Of a stretch of 64,000 nt of DNA, positions 10,556 to 60,472 are shown piece by piece. This stretch comes from an uncultured virus (IMG/VR IMGVR_UViG_3300004686_000002) (lineage: Duplodnaviria; Heunggongvirae; Uroviricota; Caudoviricetes). The translations under genes were made by a program, and so were the position numbers. The stretch's first letter is position 1; every line of letters starts with the position of its first letter. Location of the stretch: IMG/VR virus record IMGVR_UViG_3300004686_000002, positions 1-64,000 of that record; one strand, 5' to 3'. Below the pieces are notes generated by a model. It did not search any database and was not told the DNA's origin. It saw nothing but the letters and a program-made list of their open reading frames with translations.

Positions 10556-10876
10556 TTAATTTTGTGTTGTTTGTGGGTTATTGTTTATGTTTGTTGGATT
10601 TTCTTCGTTCAGGTTTGTAAAAAGGAAGTACTGATCTCCTAGTTTTGTGCTCATGGCTTCTGCCACTGCGTATATGTTGTCATATTGACTAAACCAATAC
10701 CGCAGGTAGCCAGAATAATCCAGTGGAATTTTGTTCCACTCGCGAATAATGGCCTCTGCGAGCTTTTCGTCAATGTTCCATTCATCTATTTGAATATGTA
10801 GTCTCTGGCAGACCTTGTCAAGGCACTCCCTGAGTTTATTTTCAATGATGCGCTTGTTTGTTTCCTGATAATCCAT
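10556..10876 (-). CDS. Hypothetical protein coupled to the E1 gene
   Basis: TGATG overlap with the E1 stop. Confidence 0.6.
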   Translation of the reverse strand: MDYQETNKRIIENKLRECLDKVCQRLHIQIDEWNIDEKLAEAIIREWNKIPLDYSGYLRYWFSQYDNIYAVAEAMSTKLGDQYFLFTNLNEENPTNINNNPQTTQN

Positions 10877-11472
10877 CAGATCATGAACAGCTTCTTGTCT
10901 GTTCGTTCTCCTCTTATGAAATTAAGGAACGTTTGAACCATCATGCCTGCCACAACAGTAGGAAGAGTATGACTGATGTTTGACTCTTTCTCGTGCTTTA
11001 GCAAGCAACCTCCCCGGATCTCCTCGTCATTGATATACTTCTTCAGCTCGTCCTCTGGAAGCTTGGAATTAAACAAAGCACCTTGACGGCTGGTGCAACG
11101 ACCATCTATCCAGAAAGCCTTGTCCTTGTTTTCAAACCCCCAGGTATACAGGGTTTTACGGAACTGCATACTGTCCACGCAGCTGAAGATTACATCATAT
11201 TTCTTGAAGTCCTTTTCATCCATGAACTTATTAATGCCGTTCACCACATATTTGTCCTCTAGCACTTTTACTTTAGGGCGACCAACGTCATCAATCTTGT
11301 AGTTTTGGTGAAGAAGATTGCTGGTATCCACAGTGTCGTCGTCATAGATATCAACATCCACACTGGAGTAATCGAACTGCTTACGATTAAATCCATAGTC
11401 GAATAGTATAGCCAATAAGTTAGAACCAATACCGCCAGCACCTGCAATTCCGATTTTCTTTATTTTATTCAT
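10876..11472 (-). CDS. ThiF/MoeB/E1-family adenylyltransferase (ubiquitin-activating-like)
   Basis: GAGGIG loop, DDDTVDTSNLLHQ, GRPKV, CVDS...R, WIDGR; candidate catalytic Cys in IRGGCLL. Confidence 0.92.
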   Translation of the reverse strand: MNKIKKIGIAGAGGIGSNLLAILFDYGFNRKQFDYSSVDVDIYDDDTVDTSNLLHQNYKIDDVGRPKVKVLEDKYVVNGINKFMDEKDFKKYDVIFSCVDSMQFRKTLYTWGFENKDKAFWIDGRCTSRQGALFNSKLPEDELKKYINDEEIRGGCLLKHEKESNISHTLPTVVAGMMVQTFLNFIRGERTDKKLFMI

Positions 11473-11911
11473 TGTTTGTTATGTGTAGTAGTGTTTCCAG
11501 ACCCATTACAAATGTATGAAGGTCTTTTTGTGGTGACCATTCAGAGAATGAAAAGGCTCTGTGTTTTTTAGAATATATGTAATTATATTTGAATCCTTGG
11601 AATAATTTATCGTAATCAAGCTGACTAGGAGTAGGTGCGAATTGAGGATGTGTATGAAAGCTTGCATACATATTCCAACCCTTACCTATCATAGATATAA
11701 CTTTCTCGCCAAAGTCTTTAGGATCTGTGACATAAAGACCATAGGCTACTTCTTCACCGGCATGGAGATTTTTTACTTTAACAAAAACAAAATCAATTTC
11801 GTTCTTGGTGAGTATTATTCCCCCCTCTTCCTCGTTATCTAGGGGGCAGCTTATCGCTGCCCCCGTAATAACTCTGGATAACTTTTTATTTATTTCTTTT
11901 ATAATGCCCAT
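11465..11911 (-). CDS. JAB/JAMM (MPN+) metallo-isopeptidase
   Basis: Glu in EEEGG plus HTHPQFAPTPSQLD = HxH-x7-S-x2-D; start placed at the TAATG overlap at 11911. Confidence 0.9.
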   Translation of the reverse strand: MGIIKEINKKLSRVITGAAISCPLDNEEEGGIILTKNEIDFVFVKVKNLHAGEEVAYGLYVTDPKDFGEKVISMIGKGWNMYASFHTHPQFAPTPSQLDYDKLFQGFKYNYIYSKKHRAFSFSEWSPQKDLHTFVMGLETLLHITNNE

Positions 11912-12570
11912 TATACCAGGCCCCACTTTTCCGCAATCTTCTTGGTGAGGATCAGATCATTCTTTAGATAATCTTTTGCGGCCTCTGGGTTTTCTGAGTA
12001 CTTCTGATAGAATAGCTTGTCATCTTTTGGTTTGTCGCCCACACCAAGGTGTAACGCCAACTCTTTCAGGCTGGTGTAATCCTTGCGCCGACAATCCCAC
12101 ATAACCGCTAGATCCACAAGGCCGGAATCATAACCAATGCCACCATCTGTTCTGAAGAACTTGGTGAACATGTTATTACCATACTTCAGACCTCTGCGGC
12201 AAAGAAACGGAATATCAAAATTGTTTCCGTTAAATGTGATTATCTCGTAGGCTCTTCCAGAAGCACCATTAGCGTCTGTGCTGAATGTGAGAAGATCGCT
12301 GAAAATATTAATCAGCTTTTCTTCTGCCATAGCGCAATACAGTTCAGGCTCTTCTTTACCAATTTCCCAGATGCCTAATGCACATACTTTAGATGTTAGT
12401 GCAGACAAGGTGGACTTCTCGTAGAAGTTAACTTCCTTGGACTTAAGATCTTCTGCGATTTTAACAGGATCCTTTAGTCGGCTATCTGCCTTGAACTCCG
12501 GAACAAACGGAGCAAGCTCTTCTTTTTCAAGTGGTTCTGTCTCTATATCGATTACGTATTTCTTGATCAT
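11911..12570 (-). CDS. Stand-alone DEDDy 3'-5' exonuclease (PolB-exonuclease-like)
   Basis: DIETE, FNGNNFDIPFL, YLKND; start moved to the ATG at 12570, downstream of a hairpin. Confidence 0.85.
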   Translation of the reverse strand: MIKKYVIDIETEPLEKEELAPFVPEFKADSRLKDPVKIAEDLKSKEVNFYEKSTLSALTSKVCALGIWEIGKEEPELYCAMAEEKLINIFSDLLTFSTDANGASGRAYEIITFNGNNFDIPFLCRRGLKYGNNMFTKFFRTDGGIGYDSGLVDLAVMWDCRRKDYTSLKELALHLGVGDKPKDDKLFYQKYSENPEAAKDYLKNDLILTKKIAEKWGLV

Positions 12571-33845: not shown

Positions 33846-33866
33846 TGTGTGTGTTAGCTTGCTGGT

Positions 33867-34064
33867 TTATACTTTCTTTGGCCTAGGTGGTGCCTGCGGC
33901 TGAGGAGGGGGTTGCACCTGTTGGGCATAACTATCCGCCAAATCCTTGCGCTGAGCAGACTTGCTACTGCCTGTATAATATTTATCTAATAGCGGCTTTA
34001 TTACCGGAGATACATATTGTTTAAGCCTGTCTCTGACCTTATAATAAATTGCTGTTTTACTCAT
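33867..34064 (-). CDS. Small hypothetical protein
   Basis: ATG 7 nt downstream of a TATAAT box. Confidence 0.55.
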   Translation of the reverse strand: MSKTAIYYKVRDRLKQYVSPVIKPLLDKYYTGSSKSAQRKDLADSYAQQVQPPPQPQAPPRPKKV

Positions 34065-34071
34065 AACTACG

Positions 34072-34077
34072 ATTATA
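34072..34077 (-). promoter_or_regulatory. -10 box TATAAT
   Basis: At the head of the long minus-strand run, divergent from the terminase. Confidence 0.5.
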
Positions 34078-34233
34078 CTACCTTTTCCTATATACTGGGT
34101 AATATTTTTTATTTACCTCTGCCTTTGGGGTAACAACTGAAATAAGCGATTCGAGCGCTTCATATGTAAAATTATATATTGTAACAAAGTTGTTGATTTG
34201 TTTTTGATTTTTACCTAACTTCTTTCTTGTACT

Positions 34234-38260: not shown

Positions 38261-38734
38261 TCTACTGGAGGTAGGGTTTGTTCATATTTGAATGGTTGTA
38301 ATTTTGAGCCGTCAGGATACTTTCCTGATTTTAAAATTTCGGCAGCTTTGTCTTTAGCTTCCCATGGGGCATCTGCTTCCACAGGTATTATCAAGCTATA
38401 TATCTTCTTTATTTTTACTTCATATTTCATTTGCTTTGCCCATCGAAGGGTGAGGCGTAGTTCCATGAAGGCTGTGGGCTAACCCTGAAAAACAGGGCGT
38501 ACCAAGGAATAGTTGCATCTTTTTTAACTTTATCCAAATAACTTACATATGCCCAAATAACACAAATAGAAAACAATATCATAAATGTTACATTAACTCT
38601 ACCTGTATAGCTTCTAAATAATAATTTTGTTCTGTGGTTTACTTTCATTTTGTGTGGGTGTGTAAAATAAAAAACCTCCCTTGGTGCGCATCGTTGAGAG
38701 GCGTGGGAGGTATTGTTTATTTTATTTTTATTTA

Positions 38735-42528: not shown

Positions 42529-42615
42529 TTGTGTGATAAGTTGTGCAGGGTTTATTTTTATACTCGTTGGCCATACTCCTGCTTATGCCCTTCAGTTATG
42601 AGCGACATAACAAAA

Positions 42616-42686
42616 CTACCCCTCATGGATTCGAACCATGACAAAGAGAGCCAAAATCTCTTGTGCTACCGTTACACCAAAGGGTA
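42616..42686 (-). tRNA. tRNA-Gln(TTG)
   Basis: Cloverleaf; U1-A72; loop TTTTGGC. Confidence 0.93.
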
Positions 42687-42695
42687 ATAAATCTA

Positions 42696-42770
42696 TCGGG
42701 GTGGCCGGATTCGAACCGACGACATCTTGCTCCCAAAGCAAGCGCTCTAGCCAAGCTGAGCTACACCCCG
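42696..42770 (-). tRNA. tRNA-Pro(TGG)
   Basis: Cloverleaf CGGGGTG...CACCCCG-A; loop TTTGGGA. Confidence 0.95.
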
Positions 42771-42777
42771 TAAAACA

Positions 42778-42958
42778 TTGACGGAACGATCCTGCAGAAT
42801 CTTTTCAACATCCGGGTTACCATGGTTAAAGAAGTTACTCAGCGCTTTATAGGGTGCCATACCGTTTAGAGCTCTTCTACCCGACCACACCGGTATACCT
42901 ATCAACCGTGAAGATTGAGGAAGGGATGGTCCGGTCGTATTTATGATGCTGCCGTCAA
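42778..42958 (-). ncRNA. Candidate structured RNA (181 nt)
   Basis: Closing stem TTGACGG/CCGTCAA, inner CAGCATC/GATGTTG, arm CGACC...GGTCG. Confidence 0.5.
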
Positions 42959-42964
42959 AATTCA

Positions 42965-43588
42965 TTACATATATCTATATATCCACATTCCAAGATTGTC
43001 CAGTCTGGAACCAAGGAATCTTACTCCTCTGGCAACCCCTCTCCAAGATGAGTTCCAATAATTAAATGTAATCTTATTTAGTACTCTCTTGGTCTTATTC
43101 CAGGGATGATTGTATACCTTTTCATGGCGCTGCTCGAAATCTACCCGCTGTTGTTCTATTTCTTCAGCGGTATGCACAAGCTCAGCCTTGATTTGTTTGG
43201 CCTTTTTAAGCTTTCCATTGTGTAGAACCAGCTCAAATTCAACCCACCACTCGTTACCGGCGTTATCGTACTCACTAGCGTATATTTGTACAGTTCCGCA
43301 AATATTTGTTTTAACTAATTCACGACCTGTTTCAATGAACTTATAATTAAGATAGAATTTATTTTTCTTATTTTTCTTTATTTCTTCTTCAGCGAGGGGT
43401 TCGTAACTGCCCTCTATTTTCTCTAAGTACAAGTTACCGTTAGCTTTAAGATAATAATAAGCCATGGCTAGATCTAAATCTTTCGTTTGAAAGTCGATCT
43501 TTTTCCAGTCTTTACCCTTGAACGCTTTTTTAACCTCAGGAGAGAGGGGCAGAGCTTTCTCTACAAATACAGTATCGAACATGCCCAT
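42965..43588 (-). CDS. Conserved phage hypothetical protein
   Basis: MGMFD...FQTKDL...WWVEF pattern. Confidence 0.7.
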   Translation of the reverse strand: MGMFDTVFVEKALPLSPEVKKAFKGKDWKKIDFQTKDLDLAMAYYYLKANGNLYLEKIEGSYEPLAEEEIKKNKKNKFYLNYKFIETGRELVKTNICGTVQIYASEYDNAGNEWWVEFELVLHNGKLKKAKQIKAELVHTAEEIEQQRVDFEQRHEKVYNHPWNKTKRVLNKITFNYWNSSWRGVARGVRFLGSRLDNLGMWIYRYM

Positions 43589-43589
43589 A

Positions 43590-43790
43590 TTATTCCTTAT
43601 CCTCCTGAGGTCTGGATTCTTTTCTTGCGGGGGCTTTTGGAGCATTGCCTAGAACAATAAGCTTGTTTAGCTTGAAGTCCGCAACATACTCCTTCCAGTC
43701 GGCTTCTTTCATACCCTTGGGTCTACGCGACAAGAACTTGGACTTGTCGTACGATTTGCATGTTTTAAGTAGTTTATTTGAGAATATCAT
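43590..43790 (-). CDS. Small basic hypothetical protein
   Basis: Short ORF in the operon. Confidence 0.45.
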   Translation of the reverse strand: MIFSNKLLKTCKSYDKSKFLSRRPKGMKEADWKEYVADFKLNKLIVLGNAPKAPARKESRPQEDKE

Positions 43791-43805
43791 ATTTTTTAAA
43801 TTTAA

Positions 43806-43946
43806 TGACCTGGAAGGACGCTAACCCTTCACTGTTTTGGTGTCCCTGGGCTTCGAAGCTCTCCCCCGGAATTTCCAGAGGGACAGGGTGGCTGCAGACA
43901 ACTTACTGCGTAACAAATGTATGTTCTCTTCCATACAGTCAGGTCA
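43806..43946 (-). ncRNA. Candidate structured RNA (141 nt)
   Basis: TGACCTG/CAGGTCA closing stem with several internal arms. Confidence 0.55.
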
Positions 43947-43960
43947 ATTTTGGGGGGATT

Positions 43961-44104
43961 TTATCGGGTGATTGCGAAATAGATTACATAGAACCATCCC
44001 AAGATACCATGAACAATCGCCCATAGAATACTTTGATGAAGGCTCCATGAAATGGTGATAGCCAGCGCTGTTCCGAAACCGATTCCTGCTTGTGTTATTT
44101 CCAT
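43961..44104 (-). CDS. 47-aa membrane protein (not in the ORF track)
   Basis: MEITQAGIGFGTALAITISWSLHQSILWAIVHGILGWFYVIYFAITR; two hydrophobic helices. Confidence 0.75.
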   Translation of the reverse strand: MEITQAGIGFGTALAITISWSLHQSILWAIVHGILGWFYVIYFAITR

Positions 44105-44119
44105 ATGTTTGTTTTATTT

Positions 44120-44419
44120 TTATTCTTCGTAACCGGCAATTATTGCAGCGCAGCGGATATATCCCGCAGCATCTACAAAATTGTCACGCTTTGATGTATA
44201 CACATCTCTGGCGATTTTCAATAGAACCATTAGCATAGCTGCATCATATGGTGATATCTCTGCCAATGGATCTTTTCTGATACTGAGATAAGCGTTCCAC
44301 ATAGTAGCTATACGTTTATGGTTGGGCTCTGGATGATCATAATCTCTTCTACGATCACCCGAAGTAACCCGCACGGCTTCTTCTAGAATGCTTTCTTTTG
44401 TGTGTTGTGTGTTTGTCAT
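44120..44419 (-). CDS. DUF6378-family protein
   Basis: ILEEA....GDR..DY..P..N..RIA.MW, MVLLKIAR, D.AGY. Confidence 0.8.
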   Translation of the reverse strand: MTNTQHTKESILEEAVRVTSGDRRRDYDHPEPNHKRIATMWNAYLSIRKDPLAEISPYDAAMLMVLLKIARDVYTSKRDNFVDAAGYIRCAAIIAGYEE

Positions 44420-44484
44420 GGTGGATAACCCTACACCTAGTTTTTTGGTGTGTCAAATGGGTTTTTTGAATAGTTAAAAAATAA

Positions 44485-44567
44485 GAGCCCAGGACAGGGC
44501 TTATAGATTTCTGCTTTCCATCAGATTTCCCGCCTAATACCAGAGGGTTTTTGGTTGTCCTGGGCTC
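44485..44567 (-). ncRNA. Candidate structured RNA (83 nt)
   Basis: Perfect 12-bp closing stem GAGCCCAGGACA/TGTCCTGGGCTC. Confidence 0.5.
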
Positions 44568-44612
44568 AAATAAATAATTATCCGCATAGAGGGCAATAAT
44601 CAAATAAAAAAT

Positions 44613-45192
44613 TTCCGGATTGTGTTAGTCACTGCCGGACCAGTGCTCCTGTGTATGTGTGGCAAACCAGGAAAATATTGGTTGTTGGTTTATTATTACC
44701 GAGCATGTTTTGAGATTTGGACTCTGTTGTATGCTCAATCTGTTATTTTTTTGGGCGGGAAAGATATACATCTCGCGGCCACAGACGGTTCCAACACACA
44801 TGATCTAACCGATAAAAGATCATTACCAAAACAAAAGTCCCCAGACAATAGAGCTCCCAGATGGTTAACTTCCTTTTTCCTCAGAGAGCATCACCTGTAG
44901 CCCCTGAGAGGATTAATATGTTATCTTCGGGATTTCCACATATACACAAAGCGCAATGCCCTGCTTCTCACAGTGGTTTTTATATCTATTGTTGGGGGGA
45001 AATTTTTCCTCAACCCGCGGTTAGCTTCTTTCCCCCGCAATGACTAATTGCGTTTCTATCCAACATGCCTGTTAATGATAGAGGGATTACACGTACTGGG
45101 AACCGCGGTCTCGTTTGTCTGAGTAGTCACAGATAGTCACTTTGTAACCGTTAGACTATGAGCAAGGGATACGATTATCCCCAGGAGGAGTA
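44613..45192 (-). ncRNA. Candidate large structured non-coding RNA (about 580 nt)
   Basis: No credible ORF; many nested stems and a 3' pseudoknot; starts about 20 nt after the tmRNA. Confidence 0.6.
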
Positions 45193-45211
45193 CTGATTTT
45201 CATCAGTAGAT

Positions 45212-45646
45212 TGGTGGAGGCGACGGGATTCGAACCCGTGTGTTCCAGAAATATCTAACAACCGTTTACATGCTTAGCTCAGCCTATTTCATCTGTACCA
45301 GTACGCTGAGCGGATACAGATGGATCTTCAACTTAACGCGAATTGAGTCGTATCTAAATTATACCCTCACAAGATAATTGAGGTACCCTTTTGTATCTCT
45401 CCGGCATCGGGCGTCCAGAGAGCGTTTTACTACTAGCGGCTTCAAGCCGCTGCGGTTAGGCAGCGAGAAGCTCGCTGTCAGCGTAGCCATACTTTGCAAG
45501 AATGGCATCCGCCTCAGCGAGGCTAGGAGCAAGCATCTCGTTAGAGTTTGCTTTTATTTTTTTCCCAGATGATTATAGAGGCCAACTGAGATCCTCTGCA
45601 TGTAGGCTGATATCAACTCCTGGAGTCGATTTCCAATTACGCCCCC
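45212..45646 (-). ncRNA. ssrA: tmRNA (435 nt)
   Basis: 5' GGGGGCG...TCGAC, 3' GGGTTCGAATCCC-GTCGCCTCCACCA with G3.U alanine identity; tag ORF 45551-45456 ending LAA*. Confidence 0.95.
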
Positions 45647-45669
45647 AAATGTTACAAAAGCTTATTCAA

Positions 45670-46443
45670 TTACTTTATCAGTGTAAAGCAAAAGCTGCCC
45701 TCTGGAACAAGATGGTTTTCATCTCTTCCCGGACTGTAATATATATGTGGTTTTGAGGGGAGTAGAACTTTTCCGAATTTCTTACCAAGCTGTAAGATAG
45801 TTTCCATAATGCCGATAGCATAAGGATGAACTTCATCAGATTTGGTATTACTGCTGTATCTGTTCCACAGCATGTCATCATCAAAATAAAGTAAATCTGA
45901 ATATTTTGATGCTCTGCCTATCTCTAGGGTTTCTTCTCTGATATCCCTCAATCCACGTCCAAGCAGGAATGTAAAAATAATATTACCCAAGGGCTTTATC
46001 ATTTTTTTATCCTCTAGCATGTGTGAGATATACTCTATTATATTTCTGTTAAAGGTACCCATGAAATCACCGTAGATTATATCAAATTCAGCTGTTGAGC
46101 TATCAAACAAGCTGGAATTAAATTTCCTGGTGACTACATCTTCCCATGATGTTTTTTGGTCTAGTAGATCAATCTGGTTTCTTTTATTCTTGTGATTGAG
46201 CTTTAGAAAATTTCTTGAAGATTCATTCACATAAGGATCAGATTCAACACCAACAATATTGAACTTATTTTCAGGGAAATTTTGAATTAACTGCCGCTCC
46301 CATAGCCATTTTTCACCAGGCAGAGAGAGTATGTTGATATCTTCTCTATAACGCAACAGCTTCTTTAGCTCTTTGTTTAGGTAGATGTCGTTGTCTCGTT
46401 TTTCTTTACGTGCTGACCAATCTATCCTGCGTACGTTTTTCAC
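45670..46443 (-). CDS. Putative class I SAM-dependent methyltransferase-like protein
   Basis: ILSLPG...IVGVE...FDIIYGDFMG strand pattern; GTG start behind an A/C-rich leader. Confidence 0.5.
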   Translation of the reverse strand: MKNVRRIDWSARKEKRDNDIYLNKELKKLLRYREDINILSLPGEKWLWERQLIQNFPENKFNIVGVESDPYVNESSRNFLKLNHKNKRNQIDLLDQKTSWEDVVTRKFNSSLFDSSTAEFDIIYGDFMGTFNRNIIEYISHMLEDKKMIKPLGNIIFTFLLGRGLRDIREETLEIGRASKYSDLLYFDDDMLWNRYSSNTKSDEVHPYAIGIMETILQLGKKFGKVLLPSKPHIYYSPGRDENHLVPEGSFCFTLIK

Positions 46444-46481
46444 TTTTTGGTTTTGGTTGGTTGTTTGGTTTCAGGGGTTAA

Positions 46482-46598
46482 AAAATAACTCTGTGTGATC
46501 ATCACCGTGATCTGTAAAAATAACACCCAGCATTAGGTTGTTTATCTTTACAGAGCGTGTTATGGGAATTACCCATACTCTACTCACAGAATTATTTT
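46482..46598 (-). ncRNA. Candidate structured RNA or leader (117 nt)
   Basis: 14-bp closing stem (G.U on the minus strand) plus internal hairpins. Confidence 0.55.
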
Positions 46599-46608
46599 AA
46601 AAGGTTTA

Positions 46609-46780
46609 GGCGCGTTCCTACCACGATGTCTGCAAACCTCGTGGTGAGGCGAATGATTTGTTCACGGTGGTTGCAGTATCCGTGAGATTGTCATTTAGTG
46701 TGGGGGTTGTGCCACACCAGTTTCCACCAATAAGTTGGAAACCCTTTCAATAAACTCGTCAGTTTATTCCTTGCTGCGCC
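46609..46780 (-). ncRNA. Candidate five-hairpin RNA with kissing loops (172 nt)
   Basis: GGCGC/GCGCC closing stem, five hairpins, complementary loops CTGCAA/TTGCAG. Confidence 0.65.
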
Positions 46781-46786
46781 ATTTTT

Positions 46787-46880
46787 TGCTCTCTGCTTTT
46801 CAGGCGGCCATGATTCCACCTCTTCCCGACTTGAGACGGTTTACGACTCTGGTTATAGTCCAGACTAATCGCAAGTAGCA
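46787..46880 (-). ncRNA. Candidate structured RNA (about 94 nt)
   Basis: TGCT/AGCA, ACTTG/CAAGT, TCTGG/CCAGA and AGGTGG/CCGCCT stems. Confidence 0.4.
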
Positions 46881-46888
46881 TTACAAAA

Positions 46889-47016
46889 ATAGATGGATCT
46901 GTGTGCCCGTTTGCTATGTGTCTCTATGCGGTGCTCGGCCGAGCAGAGCGCCATTGTACACACAATATCAGCCGTGGACCTTTAGCTAATTAGCGGACAC
47001 ACAGATCCGAATCTAT
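46889..47016 (-). ncRNA. Candidate structured RNA (about 128 nt)
   Basis: 15-bp closing stem GGATCTGTGTGTCCG/CGGGCACACAGATCC plus inner hairpin TGCTCGGCCGAGCA. Confidence 0.6.
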
Positions 47017-47056
47017 AAACTAAAAAATATAGCCTAACAAATCTTGTTATCAATTT

Positions 47057-47064
47057 ATTATACC
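47057..47064 (-). promoter_or_regulatory. -10 box (GGTATAAT) heading the RNA island
   Basis: About 40 nt upstream of the first structured element. Confidence 0.5.
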
Positions 47065-52135: not shown

Positions 52136-55100
52136 TTAATAATTGCGACCAATTAACTGAAGTGTGGTGGTAGCTGGGATAATATTATAGTCAGTGCTGT
52201 TGCTAGGATAGAAAGTAGCTGACCAAGTATAGCTACCTCCGTAATCATACTCCGCATAATCTGGGGCATAAATGAATGTACCAGGAACAGAAGCAGTGGC
52301 TCCATAAGCCCCCGTAAACCAGGGAACACCTACGTGAGTTATTTGTGGCCAAGTAATTACCGGATCTTGTTTGGGTATACCTAGCGTAATATATATTACC
52401 TGTGCGCTGTATACCAAATTATCGGGAGATATAGATATCGAGAAAAGTCTATCTATATCATTACTGCTTGGGTTGCCAACTATGTTTCCATTTGCACTTA
52501 TCGATAATCCTTCAGGCAACCCTATTGCCTGAAATCCAAATGGAGGATTATCTGTGGTTATTGAAATTAATGGATTATCGTCTGTGTATGGTCCTGAATT
52601 TAAATAAACAGAAGGCATAATAGTGTATACATTCACATATACAGGGAAAGAATAATTTAGGCCCGGAGGTTTTACATAACTAACCTGACTTGTTTGGCTA
52701 AGGACTGGAATATTTACTGCTACCCCTGTTATGGTTACTAAGTTTGTTGTTGCTGGCACTACATTTATATGCACGGTTTTCGTGACGGGTATAAAATCAC
52801 TTGAGTTTGGCGTGAAAGTGACGTGTAGCGGAATATTTGTACCAACCATTAAAATTGTTCCTGGGACGGGATCATATACGTATTTACCCAAAACGTCAGT
52901 TGTGGCATTCAACTGGGCTCCAGGAATTAACTGTGTTTTATAAACTATATCTGCAGGATTATCCCAATTAAGTTGTGGTATGCCTTTCTGAATACTCAGT
53001 ACAAAATGGAATGCGCTTGATAATGTCCCATTATTATTAGCATATACAGTGACATTATAAATCGCGTTTAACTGACTAGCTACAGGGGTACCTATAATAT
53101 TTCCGTTGGTGTTTATAGATAGGGTATTTGGTAAACCTTGAGCGATGAAACCGGAAGCCAAGACATCCGTGTTTACTGTAAGTAGCGGATTATTGTCTGT
53201 GTATGGCCCCGCAGCCAGATAAACAGAAGGCAAGAAATTATAATATGTACCTGTTGAGCCTGTTGAACCGGTATGTGATTGATATATAGCTTGAGTTGTA
53301 GAAATTCCTGTTATTGCTATCGGGCCCCCTGCTGGGTTTACATTTATATTTACTGATGCCTCGGCTGTGTAATAGTCTACAGACGTAGGGGTAAATACAG
53401 TATTCAATGTGTTATGGATATGATTTAATACTGTCCCTGAGGCTGGAGAATATGTAAAAGTTCCGTCTACGTTTGAAGAGGCATTTAATTGGTCTGTACT
53501 CAAGGGAGTACCATAAGTTATTGGATTCGGAGAAGACCAAGTTAATACTGGGTGATTTTTCGGGGTTAAATCTAAAACAAAATTATAAGGAGGAGACTTC
53601 AAATAAAATGACCTTGGGCGATTATTTTGGTAATTATCATTACCTTGAGCGTATAGAGATATATAATATACCTTATTCAAATCTTGCGTACTTGGTGTAC
53701 CTATGATATTTCCTAGTCCTCCCACAGTTAAAGAAGAAGGTAGTCCTGTTGCGCTGTATGTATATACAGTAGAAGCAGCACCAAAAGAAAACAACGGGTT
53801 GCCTCCTGTGTAAGGTCCATTGTTTAAGTATTCAGAAGGATTAGGACTATATACAGGCCCGGAGGGTCCTGTGGCTGCAGAATAATATGAATTTAAAAAG
53901 CTTGCTGGGGTAAATGAAGTGATTTTATTAATCAATACAGTTAAATTGTTTGTAACTGTAGCTGAACCATAGTCTTCACTGTCTGGGGTAAATACTGCTG
54001 TTATGGTGTTATTGCCTACGTTGAATACTGTGCCGTAATCCGGGGTATATGTGAAAGATCCCGCCACGTCAGCTGTTGCGTTTAATTGCACTTCGGTTAT
54101 AGGTGTACCATAAACCACAGGATCTAGTGCAGGCCATGTAATATTGGTGGGTATTGGTTGTATAGATAGCGTAAAATTGAATGGAGGGGGATCGTTATAA
54201 TGAGCACCGGATTGTGGATAATAAACAACAGTATTAACTAAATTTATAGTAACGTTGTATGTTTGGTTTATTTCTGAAATCTGCGGATAGCTACCAACAA
54301 TCTTTCCAGTATTAGTTATTGTTAAAGAATTTGGTAGTCCTGTGGCAGTAAAAATATAACCACCAAAGTTGTGATAATCCGCAAGCGAAATTAAAGTATT
54401 TACAGTAAATAAGGGGTTATCTTCTGTATATGACGAGTTTAAATAAACAGAAGGTAATATGTTATATGAAGGACCTGAACCTCCAGTAGCTCCTGTACTA
54501 GACTCAAAAGTTTGGTCTGAAGATAACCCTGTTATGAGGTTAGGCGTAATAACAAGAGATACAGATTTTGTGGAGCCTGCTACATTTATATCTGACGATA
54601 CGTATTCCGCGGTTAGAATGTTTGTTCCTACGTTCAATACATCTCCTAATTGATAATTATAAAGTAATACTCCACCCTCGGTGTATATATCAAACGATGC
54701 ATTTAATTGCTGGTCTGTTAACGGGGTACCATAAATTATAGGATCTGGGGTGTCCCAAAATACATGTGACTTTCTTGGTTCAAATGCCAGTATGCAATTG
54801 TATGGGGGAGATTGGTTTCCTAAAGAATCCACAGCAGTTATAGACAACCCATAGCTCTTGTTTAGCATATTAGGTAAAACTGTTCCAATTAAGGCTCCAC
54901 TGTTATCTATTGTTAGTAGTGGGGGAAGCCCAGGGTAATATGGAGGAGTTAGTGTGATTGGTAAATCCGGCCATGCAGGGCCTGATGAGCCTGATGAGCC
55001 TGTAGGACCTGGAAATGTTGTGGAATATAAAGATATTTCCCAGCTAGAAAATGTTCCACCATTACCCCCAACACTGCTAACTGATATCGTCATACGGTTT

Positions 55101-58100
55101 CCGCTATAAATAGCAGATATTGTTCCTATCATATAGCTGAGGTTTATTCCTCCTGTGTTTGTAACCATGACACTATCCCCAGCCGCAAAAGATCCTATAG
55201 TATTAACAGTAAATGTTCTTGTCCCTGTGCCTACTTGTATTGTTGTGTTTGAAGTAACTCCGAAATACCCTAAGTTGGATTGAGAGGCTCCTGTTGGGCC
55301 TGTGCCTGCTGTAAAGCCAGCGATAGCAAATTTTGTGGTTGGATTAGCGGAGGATACTAAAGCTAACGGGCTAAGGTCTGAAAATTGCTTATATAAAACG
55401 AAGCTAGGATAAAAATTGTATATGGGTGGATTTATATTTGACGCGGGGTAAAAATCAACAGTTACGTCTGGAAATAACCCATATATCAAATTTGATAATA
55501 CAGTAACTTGATTTGTTTTTTGTGTGGGTAGATAATCTAAACTTGTAGGATTGTAATAGGCGGTTAGTGTGTCAACACCTATTGGAGGTAGGTATCCCGC
55601 CGGGGGAGAATATGTTATATTCCCAGAAGCTTGGGTGGTCGCATTTAACTGAAACTCATTAAGTCGCTGACCATAAACCATTGTGTCTGGTGTGGGCCAA
55701 TCTATCGTCGCATGTACGGCACTAAAAGATAATACGAAAGTAAATATATTAGAGCTACCTGCAGGGTTCGAAACTCTCGCGGATATGGTGTAATGTAAAT
55801 TTATATCATCGTACGAAGGATAGCCCACTAAATTTCCGTTGGGATTAAAGTGCAGACTAGTAAAGTGTCTGGGTGTAATGCTCGTTATCTCAATACTTGT
55901 TGGATCGTTTGTTACAGATAAACTTAACAAAGGATTATCATCAGTATACTCTCCCGGCCCCAGATAAACAGAAGGTAGGAAATTATAAGATGGTCCCGTA
56001 TTCCCTGTGGCTCCTGTATAAGATTCGTATGTTTGATTTGTTGAAATTCCTGTTATGCTGGGCAGTCCCCAATATTGAATATCGTATTGATTATTAGAAG
56101 CGCCTCCTAAATATTGATTTTCAATCACAACAGAAAATACACCTGAAGAATTAGTGCTTGCGGGAGTGCCTGTGAAATTGCAGTTAAATCCAGGAAAACC
56201 ATTGTAAGAAACACCGTCGGGCCATGTACCGCTAATATTGTAGAATATGGCGTTATCTGCGGAGGTTATTTTTTTACAGACTGTATGATTCTCAAGCATC
56301 ACAATAGATTGATCTGCAGTATCAGAAACCACTATTGAGCAAGTACCTGTACCATAGTAGCCATATTCAGATTCTACCGAAATGGTCACATTGTATGTTC
56401 CTGTTTGGCTAACCGGTCCTCCCACAATTTGTCCCGACTCTGGAACTATACTTAAAGAAGGAGGTAACCCTACAGCAGAAAATAGTATCGGATTTTGAGT
56501 AGCATAAACACTAAACAATGGGGAGTCTGTGGTGTATTCTCTATTGTTGTAGTCTGGAGGATTAATATAGTAAATATTTTGGCTTAATGGTGTAGTTATT
56601 TGGGGTGTGGGTGAATTAGGTAAATAATTTAAGTTTAAAGAAAGGGGCATTTGTGTGCTTCCTTTATTTGCAAACAAAGTTAATGGGTAATTTGCCGCAT
56701 GGGTTAATCCACTAACGGTACCATAAATATTGCAGGTTGCTCCTGTAGCCCCAGTAAAATGAAGTCCAGGAGGTAATGGGCCAGTATAACCATAACTGTC
56801 GGCTTGTCCTAATCCTGATATCTTATAACAGTAGGGGGTATTTAAAAACACACCACCATTCAACGGAGAAGAAGAAATATATATTTTAAACGAAGATATA
56901 TATCTAGCTCCTGAGGAAGTACCTGCGATAACCTGCACATTATACGTACCCTCAACATCGTTAGCTGCACCTATAACTTTTCCGTCTTGTGTTATACTCA
57001 AGCCCCTAGGTAATCCAGAGGCTAAATAAAAGCTTATAGGTCTAGCTGTGAGTATTTGTAATAGTGGTGCGTCAGCATTAAAAGTTATCGTGCTATAGCC
57101 ACCAGAATAGACTATATAAAATAATTGATCTTGAGCTGGATAAGTTATTTGTAGTGACGGAGAATATATAAAATTAAAAAATCTATTGGTTATTAAACCG
57201 GCATTATTTATGGATAATGTGATATATTGTTGAATTTCATTAGTCTGATTAAGAATTCCTGAAGAATAGATGTGGCAAGAGCTATTTGCCTGACTAGAAA
57301 TATTTAAAAATGAAGGTAAATTTAATATGGAGAAAGACACATTTAAACTAGCACCTAAGGAGCTTAAATCACTAAAAGTGTAGCAAAATCCTGTTCCATA
57401 ATCCGCAATGATTTCAGATATTTCTTGAGATAGGTTGATATTAAAAGTAACTGACGTAGTACCTACAGCATTAACTGCGTTTATTGTAACTACATGGAGA
57501 CCTAGACTTGCATCATCTGAAATCTGCCCAGTAATATTTCCATTGTTATCTATGCTTAACCCTAGGGGAAGTGTTCCGTTATTGTCATTAAATGAAGTTG
57601 CCCCTAACGCAGAAACTGTAAATAGTGGATTTACTGAAGTAAATTGTGTATTGCTACCTATCGGGTTTTTAAAGTCCGGCGGATATAGATTAATAACAGT
57701 GGAATTAGTGGGGTAATTTATTATAGGTGTAACGATATAAGGTATCGTATATGACACAAGCCTGTAACTTCCACCATAAAGCTGTTGCTTAACAACAATA
57801 TTTATTTCCGTTGAGGTGGTGTCATAATTCGTACCATAAAAATTAGGTACAGCTCCCGCAGAAGAGTGATTGAGGGTAGGATCAAAAAGTAACCAGTCTG
57901 GTAAAATTTGTTCTACTGTTTGCGATATTACTTCAGGGCCAACGATTATACTGTAATTAAACTGTTCTCCCTGTTTTGCATACGATGTAGCTATGCCAGT
58001 CTCGTTTATCTCTAATAATACATGTACAGGAGAAGAGCTGCCGGCGGAATTGTGGGCTACCAAAGTCAAAGGATAAAAAGCAGGGTATACGGTATTGCTA

Positions 58101-60472
58101 GGCATCTTGAGCTTACCTATCAGCCCGTTGCCCCCCACGGATAATCCTGGAGGAAGATTGTTTGTACCTGTAGGCCCTATACTTACACCACTTAAATTAT
58201 TGTCTAAAGTTATACTATAACTGGTAGGATAATTCGATGCAGCTATGGGAATGAGGGGGGCACTCTTTGTAAAAGTTCTAGTGGTTAAAACCTGAGGGCC
58301 TCCGTCAGGAGGATAAATATTTATAACCTCGTTTTGTGTTGGATAATTAATTACCGGAGGAGCAAAATAGTCTATGGTTAACTGAAGGAAGTAATAAAGT
58401 GATCCGGATTTTCCAAAAACTGTAAAAGAATATACTTCTGAAGTATTTCCGTTCGGATTTGAAGAATAAATTCTAGGAGAATTTGAGGATGTATCTATTG
58501 TTATCCAGCTTGGTGGAGTACCTGTAACTGTAAATTCTGTAGCCTCCGGCATGTTTATAGGGTAGCTAAACGGTACACCGTAGTTCACAGAAATTACATC
58601 TTGAGTATTATTGACAGAAACACAATATGCTGCCGTTATGGTTGCTCCTGGCTCTGGTATAGTCATTGGCGTTTGAACCGCATCAATAAGAACGCCATTT
58701 GAATAGTAATTTATAGGTGTGTTACTTGGAGTAGATGTGTTTGTTATTTCAAATGTAACTTTCCCTGTATTCAAATGATCTATATCCTGTGAGCAAGGAA
58801 TGAAATATATGGATTCAAATATATTGTAATCCTTGCAGGCGATTGTTCCTACACTTGCCCCATAGCTAATATCGCCTATACTATTTTTTATCTTTACAGA
58901 AGAAGGAACGAGTGTGGCTTGGTCTGAGGTGAATGCGGATACAGAATATGAAATAGCTGCTGGTGACGGATTGTATATAACAATTACCGAAGTTATGAAT
59001 GTACCATACTGCTTGTCAGCATTATAGGCTTCTAGTGTGCCGTAGTTTAAAGTTGCGTATGGCTGATTTTTATTAGCGGCGGCGGCGTTACTTCTAGTAA
59101 TTGCGTCATTCAGTGCGTTTTTTATACCGTAGTCGTTAACGATAAAGTTATTTAAGTTTCCAGATAGGGCTGCGCATATATCATTAAAAGCTATATTTGA
59201 TTGCGTGGTAACCCCAAGTATAACTTCATGGGTGGAAATAACTTCTTTTATTTGAAAAACATAATTAATGGCCCCAGAGGTTATTGTTAATTCTCTTCCC
59301 TCATGGAAATACTTTTTAAACCCTCCTGAACACGTAGGTCCAACTGGTGTAGGTTTGCCATTTCTATACGCGCAAAAACTGGTTACTACAAAATGTGCGC
59401 TATTTATTAATCCAGTAGAATTATTTTCCGCGAAGGCAGATCCATTTATTTTTCCTATTCCATAAGTCTGTTGGGGATTATTAACTACCTTGTAAAGTTC
59501 TGCTAAGGCATCTGTGGATCTATTGAGATAATTTGCAAAACCACTTATATTTTCAGGAGAGCATTTGGGACTGCAGTGATTGTTAAATACAAGTCCGTGC
59601 CCTCCCATATCAGAGGATATGGCATTGAAGGTATTGGTGTGTGCTGCTACACCATTTCTAGCAGGGATAGGTGTGGAGAAATTTGAATAATCAGTCTTTG
59701 TTTTTAGCTCTCCTGATGTGATCTCATTAAGGGTGTTGGCACTCAAAAGGTCTAACGAATAGCAGTCGGATGGAGCTATAAACAAAGCCCCGGAAGAATT
59801 AGGGGAGCTGTTATTAACTGTATATATGTCTACTATGTCTCCGTCAGGGCAGGGGTTCCATAATCCCGTACCTAATCCTTTAGCTACATCTATATATAAT
59901 TGATGTGTGCTATCAGTGGTAAATTCATTATTTGTTCCATTGTCTAAAATGACAGCTTCTCCAGCCCCGTAAGTTTTTATGTTTTGTAATATATGGCTGG
60001 CGGTGTATCCGTCATGGGCATATGTATCAAAGCTAAGCGAAGTTACTTTTCTGGGATACCACACTATCAAGGAAGATAAAAATTCTGTTTGATCTGCTGT
60101 ATATTCTACTGTACCGGAAAAGCTAGATAAAAAATTTATCTCATCGCCAAATATTAATTTGATCACCCAGCCATCACCAGAATAGCTAAAAAAGCTTGTT
60201 TGCGTATTTGCTAAATGACTAATCGCAGAACTTAAAGGAAAACTTAAAGAGCCTATATCACCATTATTAACTTCTGATAAGGCTATATTTATATCTCCAT
60301 CAATGTTAGAGATACTAGAGATATATACTCTTTTTATATTTTTATCGTTAGTTACAAACAGCGCGTCTAAAAAAGCCCCTTTAGGAATATCTAAAGACTG
60401 ATTGGGGGCAACACTATCTTTAAAAGGATAGCTGATCAGGCTATTTGAACTTAAATATTCTAACGCGGGCAT
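52136..60472 (-). CDS. Giant repeat-rich tail fibre/adhesin (2778 aa) with putative Ig-like domains
   Basis: A.GLP..L.I...G.I.G repeats, W..P..I.YG..L...QLNA repeats, short Gly-X-Y linkers. Confidence 0.8.
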   Translation of the reverse strand: MPALEYLSSNSLISYPFKDSVAPNQSLDIPKGAFLDALFVTNDKNIKRVYISSISNIDGDINIALSEVNNGDIGSLSFPLSSAISHLANTQTSFFSYSGDGWVIKLIFGDEINFLSSFSGTVEYTADQTEFLSSLIVWYPRKVTSLSFDTYAHDGYTASHILQNIKTYGAGEAVILDNGTNNEFTTDSTHQLYIDVAKGLGTGLWNPCPDGDIVDIYTVNNSSPNSSGALFIAPSDCYSLDLLSANTLNEITSGELKTKTDYSNFSTPIPARNGVAAHTNTFNAISSDMGGHGLVFNNHCSPKCSPENISGFANYLNRSTDALAELYKVVNNPQQTYGIGKINGSAFAENNSTGLINSAHFVVTSFCAYRNGKPTPVGPTCSGGFKKYFHEGRELTITSGAINYVFQIKEVISTHEVILGVTTQSNIAFNDICAALSGNLNNFIVNDYGIKNALNDAITRSNAAAANKNQPYATLNYGTLEAYNADKQYGTFITSVIVIYNPSPAAISYSVSAFTSDQATLVPSSVKIKNSIGDISYGASVGTIACKDYNIFESIYFIPCSQDIDHLNTGKVTFEITNTSTPSNTPINYYSNGVLIDAVQTPMTIPEPGATITAAYCVSVNNTQDVISVNYGVPFSYPINMPEATEFTVTGTPPSWITIDTSSNSPRIYSSNPNGNTSEVYSFTVFGKSGSLYYFLQLTIDYFAPPVINYPTQNEVINIYPPDGGPQVLTTRTFTKSAPLIPIAASNYPTSYSITLDNNLSGVSIGPTGTNNLPPGLSVGGNGLIGKLKMPSNTVYPAFYPLTLVAHNSAGSSSPVHVLLEINETGIATSYAKQGEQFNYSIIVGPEVISQTVEQILPDWLLFDPTLNHSSAGAVPNFYGTNYDTTSTEINIVVKQQLYGGSYRLVSYTIPYIVTPIINYPTNSTVINLYPPDFKNPIGSNTQFTSVNPLFTVSALGATSFNDNNGTLPLGLSIDNNGNITGQISDDASLGLHVVTINAVNAVGTTSVTFNINLSQEISEIIADYGTGFCYTFSDLSSLGASLNVSFSILNLPSFLNISSQANSSCHIYSSGILNQTNEIQQYITLSINNAGLITNRFFNFIYSPSLQITYPAQDQLFYIVYSGGYSTITFNADAPLLQILTARPISFYLASGLPRGLSITQDGKVIGAANDVEGTYNVQVIAGTSSGARYISSFKIYISSSPLNGGVFLNTPYCYKISGLGQADSYGYTGPLPPGLHFTGATGATCNIYGTVSGLTHAANYPLTLFANKGSTQMPLSLNLNYLPNSPTPQITTPLSQNIYYINPPDYNNREYTTDSPLFSVYATQNPILFSAVGLPPSLSIVPESGQIVGGPVSQTGTYNVTISVESEYGYYGTGTCSIVVSDTADQSIVMLENHTVCKKITSADNAIFYNISGTWPDGVSYNGFPGFNCNFTGTPASTNSSGVFSVVIENQYLGGASNNQYDIQYWGLPSITGISTNQTYESYTGATGNTGPSYNFLPSVYLGPGEYTDDNPLLSLSVTNDPTSIEITSITPRHFTSLHFNPNGNLVGYPSYDDINLHYTISARVSNPAGSSNIFTFVLSFSAVHATIDWPTPDTMVYGQRLNEFQLNATTQASGNITYSPPAGYLPPIGVDTLTAYYNPTSLDYLPTQKTNQVTVLSNLIYGLFPDVTVDFYPASNINPPIYNFYPSFVLYKQFSDLSPLALVSSANPTTKFAIAGFTAGTGPTGASQSNLGYFGVTSNTTIQVGTGTRTFTVNTIGSFAAGDSVMVTNTGGINLSYMIGTISAIYSGNRMTISVSSVGGNGGTFSSWEISLYSTTFPGPTGSSGSSGPAWPDLPITLTPPYYPGLPPLLTIDNSGALIGTVLPNMLNKSYGLSITAVDSLGNQSPPYNCILAFEPRKSHVFWDTPDPIIYGTPLTDQQLNASFDIYTEGGVLLYNYQLGDVLNVGTNILTAEYVSSDINVAGSTKSVSLVITPNLITGLSSDQTFESSTGATGGSGPSYNILPSVYLNSSYTEDNPLFTVNTLISLADYHNFGGYIFTATGLPNSLTITNTGKIVGSYPQISEINQTYNVTINLVNTVVYYPQSGAHYNDPPPFNFTLSIQPIPTNITWPALDPVVYGTPITEVQLNATADVAGSFTYTPDYGTVFNVGNNTITAVFTPDSEDYGSATVTNNLTVLINKITSFTPASFLNSYYSAATGPSGPVYSPNPSEYLNNGPYTGGNPLFSFGAASTVYTYSATGLPSSLTVGGLGNIIGTPSTQDLNKVYYISLYAQGNDNYQNNRPRSFYLKSPPYNFVLDLTPKNHPVLTWSSPNPITYGTPLSTDQLNASSNVDGTFTYSPASGTVLNHIHNTLNTVFTPTSVDYYTAEASVNINVNPAGGPIAITGISTTQAIYQSHTGSTGSTGTYYNFLPSVYLAAGPYTDNNPLLTVNTDVLASGFIAQGLPNTLSINTNGNIIGTPVASQLNAIYNVTVYANNNGTLSSAFHFVLSIQKGIPQLNWDNPADIVYKTQLIPGAQLNATTDVLGKYVYDPVPGTILMVGTNIPLHVTFTPNSSDFIPVTKTVHINVVPATTNLVTITGVAVNIPVLSQTSQVSYVKPPGLNYSFPVYVNVYTIMPSVYLNSGPYTDDNPLISITTDNPPFGFQAIGLPEGLSISANGNIVGNPSSNDIDRLFSISISPDNLVYSAQVIYITLGIPKQDPVITWPQITHVGVPWFTGAYGATASVPGTFIYAPDYAEYDYGGSYTWSATFYPSNSTDYNIIPATTTLQLIGRNY

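Follow-up and report, generated by a model that had tools for sequence, protein, structure and literature searches.

The tRNA cluster of phage T4 encodes small stable RNAs of unknown function (species 1 and 2; rnaC, rnaD), which host enzymes cut from a transfer RNA (tRNA) precursor. Twister and hammerhead ribozymes reportedly share gene contexts, as is said of the work of Roth 2014 and Weinberg 2015. Self-cleaving ribozymes of bacteria have been described as clustering together and in the vicinity of phage genes, with a proposed part in the processing of polycistronic transcripts; the same account leaves largely open what such ribozymes do biologically in bacteria and phages (PMC6765202). GOLLD and ROOL are described as large structured RNAs that often occur near tRNAs and in prophages and are possibly co-transcribed with tRNAs (PMC5737381), and hepatitis delta virus (HDV)-like theta ribozymes are reported to adjoin viral tRNAs in phage genomes (PMC10879173). 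Here we analyse an island of structured RNAs at positions 42,778 to 47,064 of a 64,000-nucleotide (nt) stretch, hereafter the window, which comprises positions 1 to 64,000 of the uncultured virus record IMGVR_UViG_3300004686_000002. The island consists of eight units, U1 to U8, around a transfer-messenger RNA (tmRNA) gene and tRNA genes. Ribozyme-associated phage RNA islands are a known kind of locus; what is new here are the RNA families, the association with tmRNA and a twister-for-pistol replacement at an orthologous position.

The island resembles the ribozyme-rich neighbourhoods of twister, hammerhead, pistol, hatchet and twister-sister, in which small ribozymes lie beside structured RNAs and phage genes. 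It differs from them in that two predicted ribozyme classes occupy one orthologous slot of close relatives, and in that the neighbours are a tmRNA, tRNAs and at least six RNA families outside Rfam. At about 500 nt, and lying between the tmRNA and the tRNAs, U5 recalls GOLLD and ROOL, but it splits into modules that relatives carry separately, and it had no match to the GOLLD or ROOL models at E ≤ 10 in searches of 6 kilobases (kb) and 1.8 kb. Compared with the RNAs of the T4 tRNA cluster, the present island is larger and includes predicted ribozymes and a tmRNA. Theta ribozymes belong to a different class and directly flank tRNAs, whereas the predicted ribozyme here flanks unassigned RNAs, 4 kb from the tRNAs. 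A literature search, whose scope did not extend to Roth 2014, Weinberg 2015 and their supplements, yielded no account of these RNAs or of such a swap.

Our best reading, in which we place moderate confidence, is that the island gives rise to stable RNAs from multi-RNA precursors, cut by a ribozyme and by host tRNA-processing enzymes. We also consider it probable that the island is a chain of separately folding non-coding RNAs encoded on one strand together with tmRNA and tRNA genes. The features are listed below in descending order of position (ORF, open reading frame; aa, amino acids; bp, base pairs).

47092-47086: C7 run upstream of GGTATAAT
47057..47064, minus strand: promoter-like -10 box GGTATAAT, located by position, its function predicted
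46889..47016, minus strand: U1, three-way-junction RNA with a long closing stem (folding and covariation)
46785..46887, minus strand: U2, probably a divergent twister ribozyme of type P1, with inserts at P3 and P5 (RF03160 match)
46609..46780, minus strand: U3, multi-hairpin RNA with a G+C closing stem, directly after the ribozyme (folding and covariation)
46482..46598, minus strand: U4, three-way-junction RNA with an invariant purine-rich junction, then a T-run (folding and covariation)
45670..46443, minus strand: 257-aa ORF between U4 and the tmRNA
45212..45646, minus strand: tmRNA gene with a 30-residue tag (ARAGORN; RF00023, 98.9 bits)
44613..45192, minus strand: U5, composite structured region of about 500 nt, conserved from ~45125
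~44652-44613, minus strand: 3' hairpin or pseudoknot-like element of U5
44485..44567, minus strand: U6, 12-bp stem with inner hairpins, then a T-run; terminator-like (folding, terminator scan)
43806..43946, minus strand: U7, four-way-junction RNA between two small ORFs (conservation and covariation)
42965-43645, minus strand: 226-aa gene
42778..42958, minus strand: U8, 181-nt branched RNA that begins at the 226-aa gene's stop codon and ends 7 nt short of tRNA-Pro
42615..42770, minus strand: tRNA-Pro and tRNA-Gln, immediately after U8 (ARAGORN, Rfam)
42081-41914 and 37714-37642, minus strand: further tRNAs (ARAGORN, Rfam)

ORFs of at least 70 aa make up 91% of the 131,625-bp viral record, and the interval 41.5-47.2 kb holds five of its six largest ORF-free gaps. 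All eight units lie inside ORF-free gaps of this interval, on the minus strand, and total 1,496 nt, in agreement with the original prediction of about 1.5 kb of non-coding DNA in an otherwise gene-dense genome. Spacing is tight, with 4 nt from the twister to U3 and 7 nt from U8 to tRNA-Pro.

We recovered relatives of the locus through homologues of the 257-aa ORF (33-59% identical) and through two DNA patterns based on stretches of U4 and U8 that do not vary. There were five distinct relatives (L004, L005, L006, L007 and L008), further copies being identical or nearly so to the window or to L005; together with the window they form the six lineages compared here, and the DNA-pattern scans for U4 and U8 returned these same six only. 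Using MAFFT alignments and RNAalifold structures, we counted the pairs kept through changes on both sides, with slid partners as controls. Compensatory changes affected 12 of the 39 pairs of U1 in four lineages (slid controls 0-4; 94.8% paired) and, across all six lineages, 7 of 28 pairs in U3 (slid controls 0-3; 95.6% paired), 14 of 36 in U4 (1-9; 91.2%), 7 of 43 in U7 (0-1; 98.6%) and 11 of 58 in U8 (0-3; 97.7%). U5 had 31 compensatory pairs among 128 consensus pairs, from about three effective lineages, and U6 had 5 among 26, between two lineages; U2 is confined to the window lineage and lies outside these counts. With at most six related sequences the covariation figures are no formal probabilities, although the contrast with the slid controls is still large. 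For each of U1, U3, U4, U7 and U8, the observed covariation score was reached by 0 of 500 column shuffles; a measure of further pair types was unexceptional for the same five units, being reached by 80 to 493 of 500 shuffles. As judged from these alignments, the comparisons show that seven or more of the eight units are conserved structured RNAs. The eight minus-strand units originally proposed were confirmed at their coordinates, seven of them with compensatory changes (5 to 31 pairs per unit).

Conservation in the region is highest in U7 and U8, with mean column identities of 92% and 88%, respectively, over all six lineages; by comparison, shared coding DNA is about 69-74% identical and the 226-aa protein 49-57% identical. 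U8 includes an invariant 35-nt run and, within an internal loop, 8 invariant nt that are self-complementary, and U4 has runs of 10 and 14 invariant bases. The invariant purine-rich strands of U4 would allow tandem G-A pairs, and the helix register favoured by covariation is no canonical kink-turn. U7 and U8 contain many G-U pairs, whose plus-strand counterparts would be A-C, which supports the earlier assignment to the minus strand. A 72-aa ORF over U8 is spurious because relatives differ there by insertions or deletions of 14, 2 and 1 nt, and U5 is likewise read as non-coding because of insertions or deletions of 1, 2, 4 and 6 nt.

Rfam at E ≤ 10 gave no match for U1, U3, U4, U5, U6, U7 or U8. 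A tRNA-like cloverleaf was found in none of the units by ARAGORN or RF00005, and the calls were limited to the tmRNA and the five tRNAs already annotated. On these searches U1, U3, U4, U5, U7 and U8 fit no Rfam family; the earlier statement that no unit could be assigned to a known family holds for these six and fails for U2, which has a sub-threshold, full-length match to twister-P1. We also considered U1 as a hammerhead and dropped the idea: its junction strands misfit the hammerhead core, and it had no Rfam match.

When a 131-nt sequence with U2 alone was searched, U2 matched RF03160 over model positions 1-68 of 68, with 29.6 bits and E 5.6e-5. Helices P1, P2 and P4 occur in order, UAA follows P1 so that the U-A cleavage dinucleotide lies between P1 and P2, and the minimum-free-energy fold forms P2, P3, P4 and P5. 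U2 carries inserts of 26 nt at P3 and 24 nt at P5, positions where twisters carry optional stems. Against the twister tertiary structure as described in PMC5408937, both pseudoknots, read by eye, keep Watson-Crick pairing: in T1 the L4 triplet is CUC for CCC and its L1 partner GAG for GGG, and in T2 the L2 dinucleotide is AC for GC and its L4 partner GU for GC. The four near-invariant twister positions that are changed (L2 G to A, two L4 C to U, and L1 G to A) all fall within these two compensating pseudoknots, and the other consensus letters shown are kept; about ten nucleotides are conserved in more than 97% of twisters. Because the covariance model leaves pseudoknots unscored, the T1 and T2 complementarity is separate, if modest, evidence. 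We regard it as quite likely that U2 is a divergent twister, predicted rather than a proven member of the family, and its cut would probably fall between U46883 and A46882.

In all five relatives the same position holds a pistol ribozyme (RF02679, 59.7-61.5 bits against a gathering score of 34.5, full-length model), which follows U1 (in lineages that lack U1, the leader) and stands immediately before the first base of U3; RF02679 had no match in the window or its genome. These matches show that the U1-U3 slot is always taken by a predicted small nucleolytic ribozyme, twister-like in the window and pistol in the five relatives. Since two unrelated ribozyme classes fill one slot, the swap suggests that cleavage itself, rather than the identity of the ribozyme, may be the selected function, and it names the RNA acted on. 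The locus is a compact natural experiment, in which six related phages keep the series ribozyme-U3-U4 with two unrelated ribozyme classes. It also adds at least six RNA families that covariation supports and Rfam lacks, of which two are conserved above neighbouring proteins, and extends a little-studied link of phage tmRNA and tRNA genes with accessory structured RNAs.

The GGTATAAT box at 47064-47057 (minus strand) heads the series, as first noted, and both the box and the C7 run are invariant in all six lineages; a generic sigma-70 scan did not pick GGTATAAT. From this putative promoter, a precursor comprising U1, the ribozyme, U3 and U4 would be transcribed and then cut by the ribozyme, in the window at the predicted U46883-A46882 site. 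The cut would free U1 with a 2',3'-cyclic phosphate end and leave as its other product a 5'-hydroxyl RNA made up of most or part of the ribozyme together with U3 and U4. The tmRNA, U5 and U6 would form a probable second unit, ending at the U6 terminator. U6 indeed looks like a predicted intrinsic terminator: a terminator scan picks its stem tip, and its 12-bp closing stem lies directly before the T-run. The next transcription unit would start from a second promoter-like site, of the TTGACA type, at ~44450, ahead of a DUF6378 gene. U7 and U8 would be carried on the tRNA-carrying transcript, where a host RNase P cut at tRNA-Pro would set the 3' end of U8, and the tmRNA and tRNAs would be released by host enzymes. 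At least three transcription units are therefore likely under this scheme, and the non-ribozyme RNAs are most likely trans-acting folded RNAs that would target host machinery in the infected cell.

New ribozyme classes have been found before through closeness to known ribozymes. It is conceivable, if doubtful, that at least one of the unassigned modules (U1, U3, U4, U7, U8 or the U5 core) represents a new catalytic or ligand-binding RNA class, most likely a self-cleaving ribozyme, or that a new ornate RNA capable of self-assembly is represented by U5 or U8. Were this true, the twister-for-pistol swap would show that the phage needs cleavage and not a given ribozyme identity.

Several points weigh against stable RNAs cut from multi-RNA precursors. 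First, we infer the transcription units, the ends and the stability of the RNAs from sequence. Second, a single operon is unlikely because of the interspersed protein genes, the terminator-like U6 and the second promoter-like site at ~44450. The original proposal of a polycistronic operon processed like a tRNA array thus survives in the part that concerns precursor cutting, which fits the ribozyme at a fixed slot and the end of U8 7 nt before tRNA-Pro, and gives way in the part that concerns one operon. Third, the 29.6 bits of U2 are far under the RF03160 gathering score of 67.2 bits, with much of the loss due to the P3 and P5 inserts; its match went unreported in 6-kb and 64-kb Rfam scans and in an RF03160 search of its own genome, which listed only a 14-bit match elsewhere (E 0.4, in the gap 33846-34233), probably noise. 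Its departures from the twister consensus at four near-invariant positions also count here, though they lie in compensating pairs. Fourth, both ribozymes would stay on U3, so that U3 would not be cleanly trimmed. Fifth, the partner proteins RtcB, L7Ae, TROVE/Ro60 and SmpB were not found in the record, which is 67% complete. Lastly, the statistics are thin, with six lineages only, three of which are near-identical in U5 and U6.

The main rival is a set of cis-regulatory roles for U6, U7 and U8. In its general form, which we consider rather unlikely, most modules would be cis-acting elements of adjacent genes, such as leaders, riboswitch-like sensors, terminators or processing signals: U6 would end the tmRNA unit, U7 would control a small ORF, U8 would be the leader of the tRNA transcript and U5 the trailer of the tmRNA. 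The layout agrees with this in that U6 is a stem followed by a T-run, U7 ends at 43806 with an ATG-initiated ORF starting 16 nt on at 43790, and U8 abuts tRNA-Pro; U7 and U8 also show the very high sequence conservation that is typical of ligand-binding aptamers. However, each unit has its own terminal closing stem and shows no competing fold in which it would pair with a terminator or a ribosome-binding site, and in L006 and L008 the units U1 to U4 have no adjacent gene and run straight into the tmRNA. Moreover, in 19 more distant phage loci, reached by alignment of the 226-aa protein, the U7 and U8 covariance models had no match in the 6 kb around the 226-aa gene, which is followed there by further genes or directly by the tmRNA.

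The composition of the island varies between lineages. U3, U4, U7 and U8 occur in all six. U1 is present in the window, L004, L007 and L008, persists as a 21-nt remnant in L005 and is absent in L006. The 5' domain of U5 and U6 are found only in the window and the L004 group (U6 in four of the six lineages); the U5 core is also present in L008, whereas L006 lacks the central domain of U5 but does have the 3' hairpin or pseudoknot-like element, with a compensatory change. An extra hairpin stands between U3 and U4 in L006 and L008. The 257-aa gene lies between U4 and the tmRNA in four lineages; in L006 it is located elsewhere, L008 has no copy at that site, and in both of these U4 runs almost directly into the tmRNA. 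Three modules are absent from the window: X, in L004, L005 and L007, with a similar leader sequence in L006 and L008; Y, in L004, L005 and L007; and Z, seen in L005, L006 and L008 and presumed in L004 and L007 from their 99% identity to L005. Stem-closed modules missing from the window lie at ~4290-4350 and 4487-4585 of L004, at 6234-6470 of L005 and at 3375-3450 of L006, and no Rfam match to the extra modules of the relatives was found in L005 4200-7400. The tRNA sets vary as well, with Pro in the window and Asn, Asp and Ala in relatives, where tRNA-Asn follows U8. This distribution shows that close relatives gain, lose and exchange these predicted modules.

The tmRNA gene has features of its own. 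Its tag is unusually long at 30 residues and ends in LLAA, and L005 and L006 have nearly the same tag. In L004 and L007 (both ~6219-6871) and L008 (between ~5037 and 5911) the gene is interrupted within the T-arm sequence by an insertion of ~650 bp in L004 and L007 and up to ~870 bp in L008. The insertion carries an opposite-strand ORF of 136 aa, which resembles LAGLIDADG endonucleases weakly and below the cut-off (E 6e-4 to 8e-4), and is possibly an intron or another mobile insertion. The interrupted gene goes uncalled by ARAGORN in L004, L007 and L008, and by Rfam in L004 and L007.

The original prediction had suggested that the RNAs might be decoys or sponges against host defence or RNA-binding proteins, beside tRNAs and a tmRNA that may replace host RNAs attacked by nucleases. 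The company of tRNAs and tmRNA suits this idea, as does the quick turnover of modules between close relatives, which arms-race loci would be expected to show, and a phage-borne abiF RNA motif lies 4 kb away, flanked by ORFs with no Pfam family. No unit, however, is linked to a known host RNA or defence system or has Rfam similarity to host RNA classes, and U3, U4, U7 and U8 are stable across six lineages and not fast-evolving. We judge decoys to be improbable. More improbable still is a reading of the modules as mobile RNA elements, selfish or remnant, that bear ribozymes or derive from introns and sit in a permissive non-coding region without serving the phage. Such elements could account for the mosaic of presence and absence, for the swap of ribozyme class at one slot and for the insertion with a LAGLIDADG-like ORF in the tmRNA of relatives. 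Purifying selection on U3, U4, U7 and U8 in all six lineages is, however, stronger than on the flanking genes, and no module is repeated elsewhere within the window. An 18-mer of U8 had 12 hits among genome contigs, all by chance, 11 of them without other similarity and one over only 21 nt.

Folding z-scores were obtained from 200 dinucleotide shuffles per unit, or 100 for U5. For U1 (z -5.5), U3 (-4.7), U4 (-6.0) and U6 (-3.9), 0 of 200 shuffles folded as well, and U5 (z -2.4) was matched by 0 of 100. Shuffles folded as well as the real unit in 16 of 200 cases for U2 (z -1.5), 7 of 200 for U7 (z -2.0) and 19 of 200 for U8 (z -1.4). Energy alone singles out only four or five of the eight units, and z-scores computed for both strands were similar on plus and minus and did not separate them. 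The shuffle comparison suggested with the original prediction thus comes out in favour of U1, U3, U4, U5 and U6, while U2, U7 and U8 do not stand out. Functionless chance folds in A/T-rich intergenic DNA could fit the 4-10% of shuffles that match the folding of U2, U7 and U8 and the similar z-scores of the two strands, but are highly improbable in view of compensatory changes far above slid and shuffled controls in seven units and of conservation above that of coding DNA.

In a blastn search of GenBank phages with the island, 725 records matched and none covered at least 80% of the query; in all 30 of the matches listed, only tRNA-Pro was matched. At the 19 distant loci, nhmmer profiles of U1, U3, U4, U7 and U8 found nothing, with a positive control included, and covariance models of U7, U8 and U4 matched only the window when these loci and the window were searched together. 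Rfam at the gathering threshold, applied to 13 of the 19, returned only tmRNA and tRNAs and no ribozyme. The distant loci are gene-dense around the tmRNA. On present data, the predicted island does not extend beyond a narrow clade. The tmRNA adjoins or is near the 226-aa protein gene in four of the 13 distant loci scanned (L050, L052, L053 and L066).

The source of the record is a lake phage, and the encoded proteins are typical of a large tailed phage, among them RecA-like and DnaB-like proteins, a primase Toprim domain, a family A polymerase and a terminase large subunit. For the 257-aa protein, Pfam gave no family and PDB no sequence match; it had only two homologues in a search of 5.8 billion proteins, and its structural model is too poor for use (predicted local distance difference test, pLDDT, 46). 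The model of the 226-aa protein (pLDDT 73) shows a beta-sheet followed by a long helical hairpin, and had no PDB fold match at E ≤ 0.001. Between tRNA-Gln and a 146-aa gene, positions 42538-42606 (minus strand) are 85% identical to relatives, above coding DNA; Rfam at E ≤ 10 gave no match over 42530-42620.

Elsewhere in the record, further ORF-free gaps occur at 4851-5431 (581 nt) and 33846-34233 (388 nt), and a single 2,777-aa ORF, with no Pfam family above cut-off, spans 52136-60469 (minus strand). The abiF RNA motif (RF03085) lies at 38674-38710 (minus strand), with 50 bits against a gathering score of 37. Because both flanking ORFs are without a Pfam family, no AbiF-type gene is evident, and the motif may represent an abortive-infection RNA of the host of which the phage carries a copy. 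At 10876-11923 (minus strand), adjacent genes of the ThiF family (E1-like) and with a prokaryotic JAB domain form a ubiquitin-like conjugation pair.

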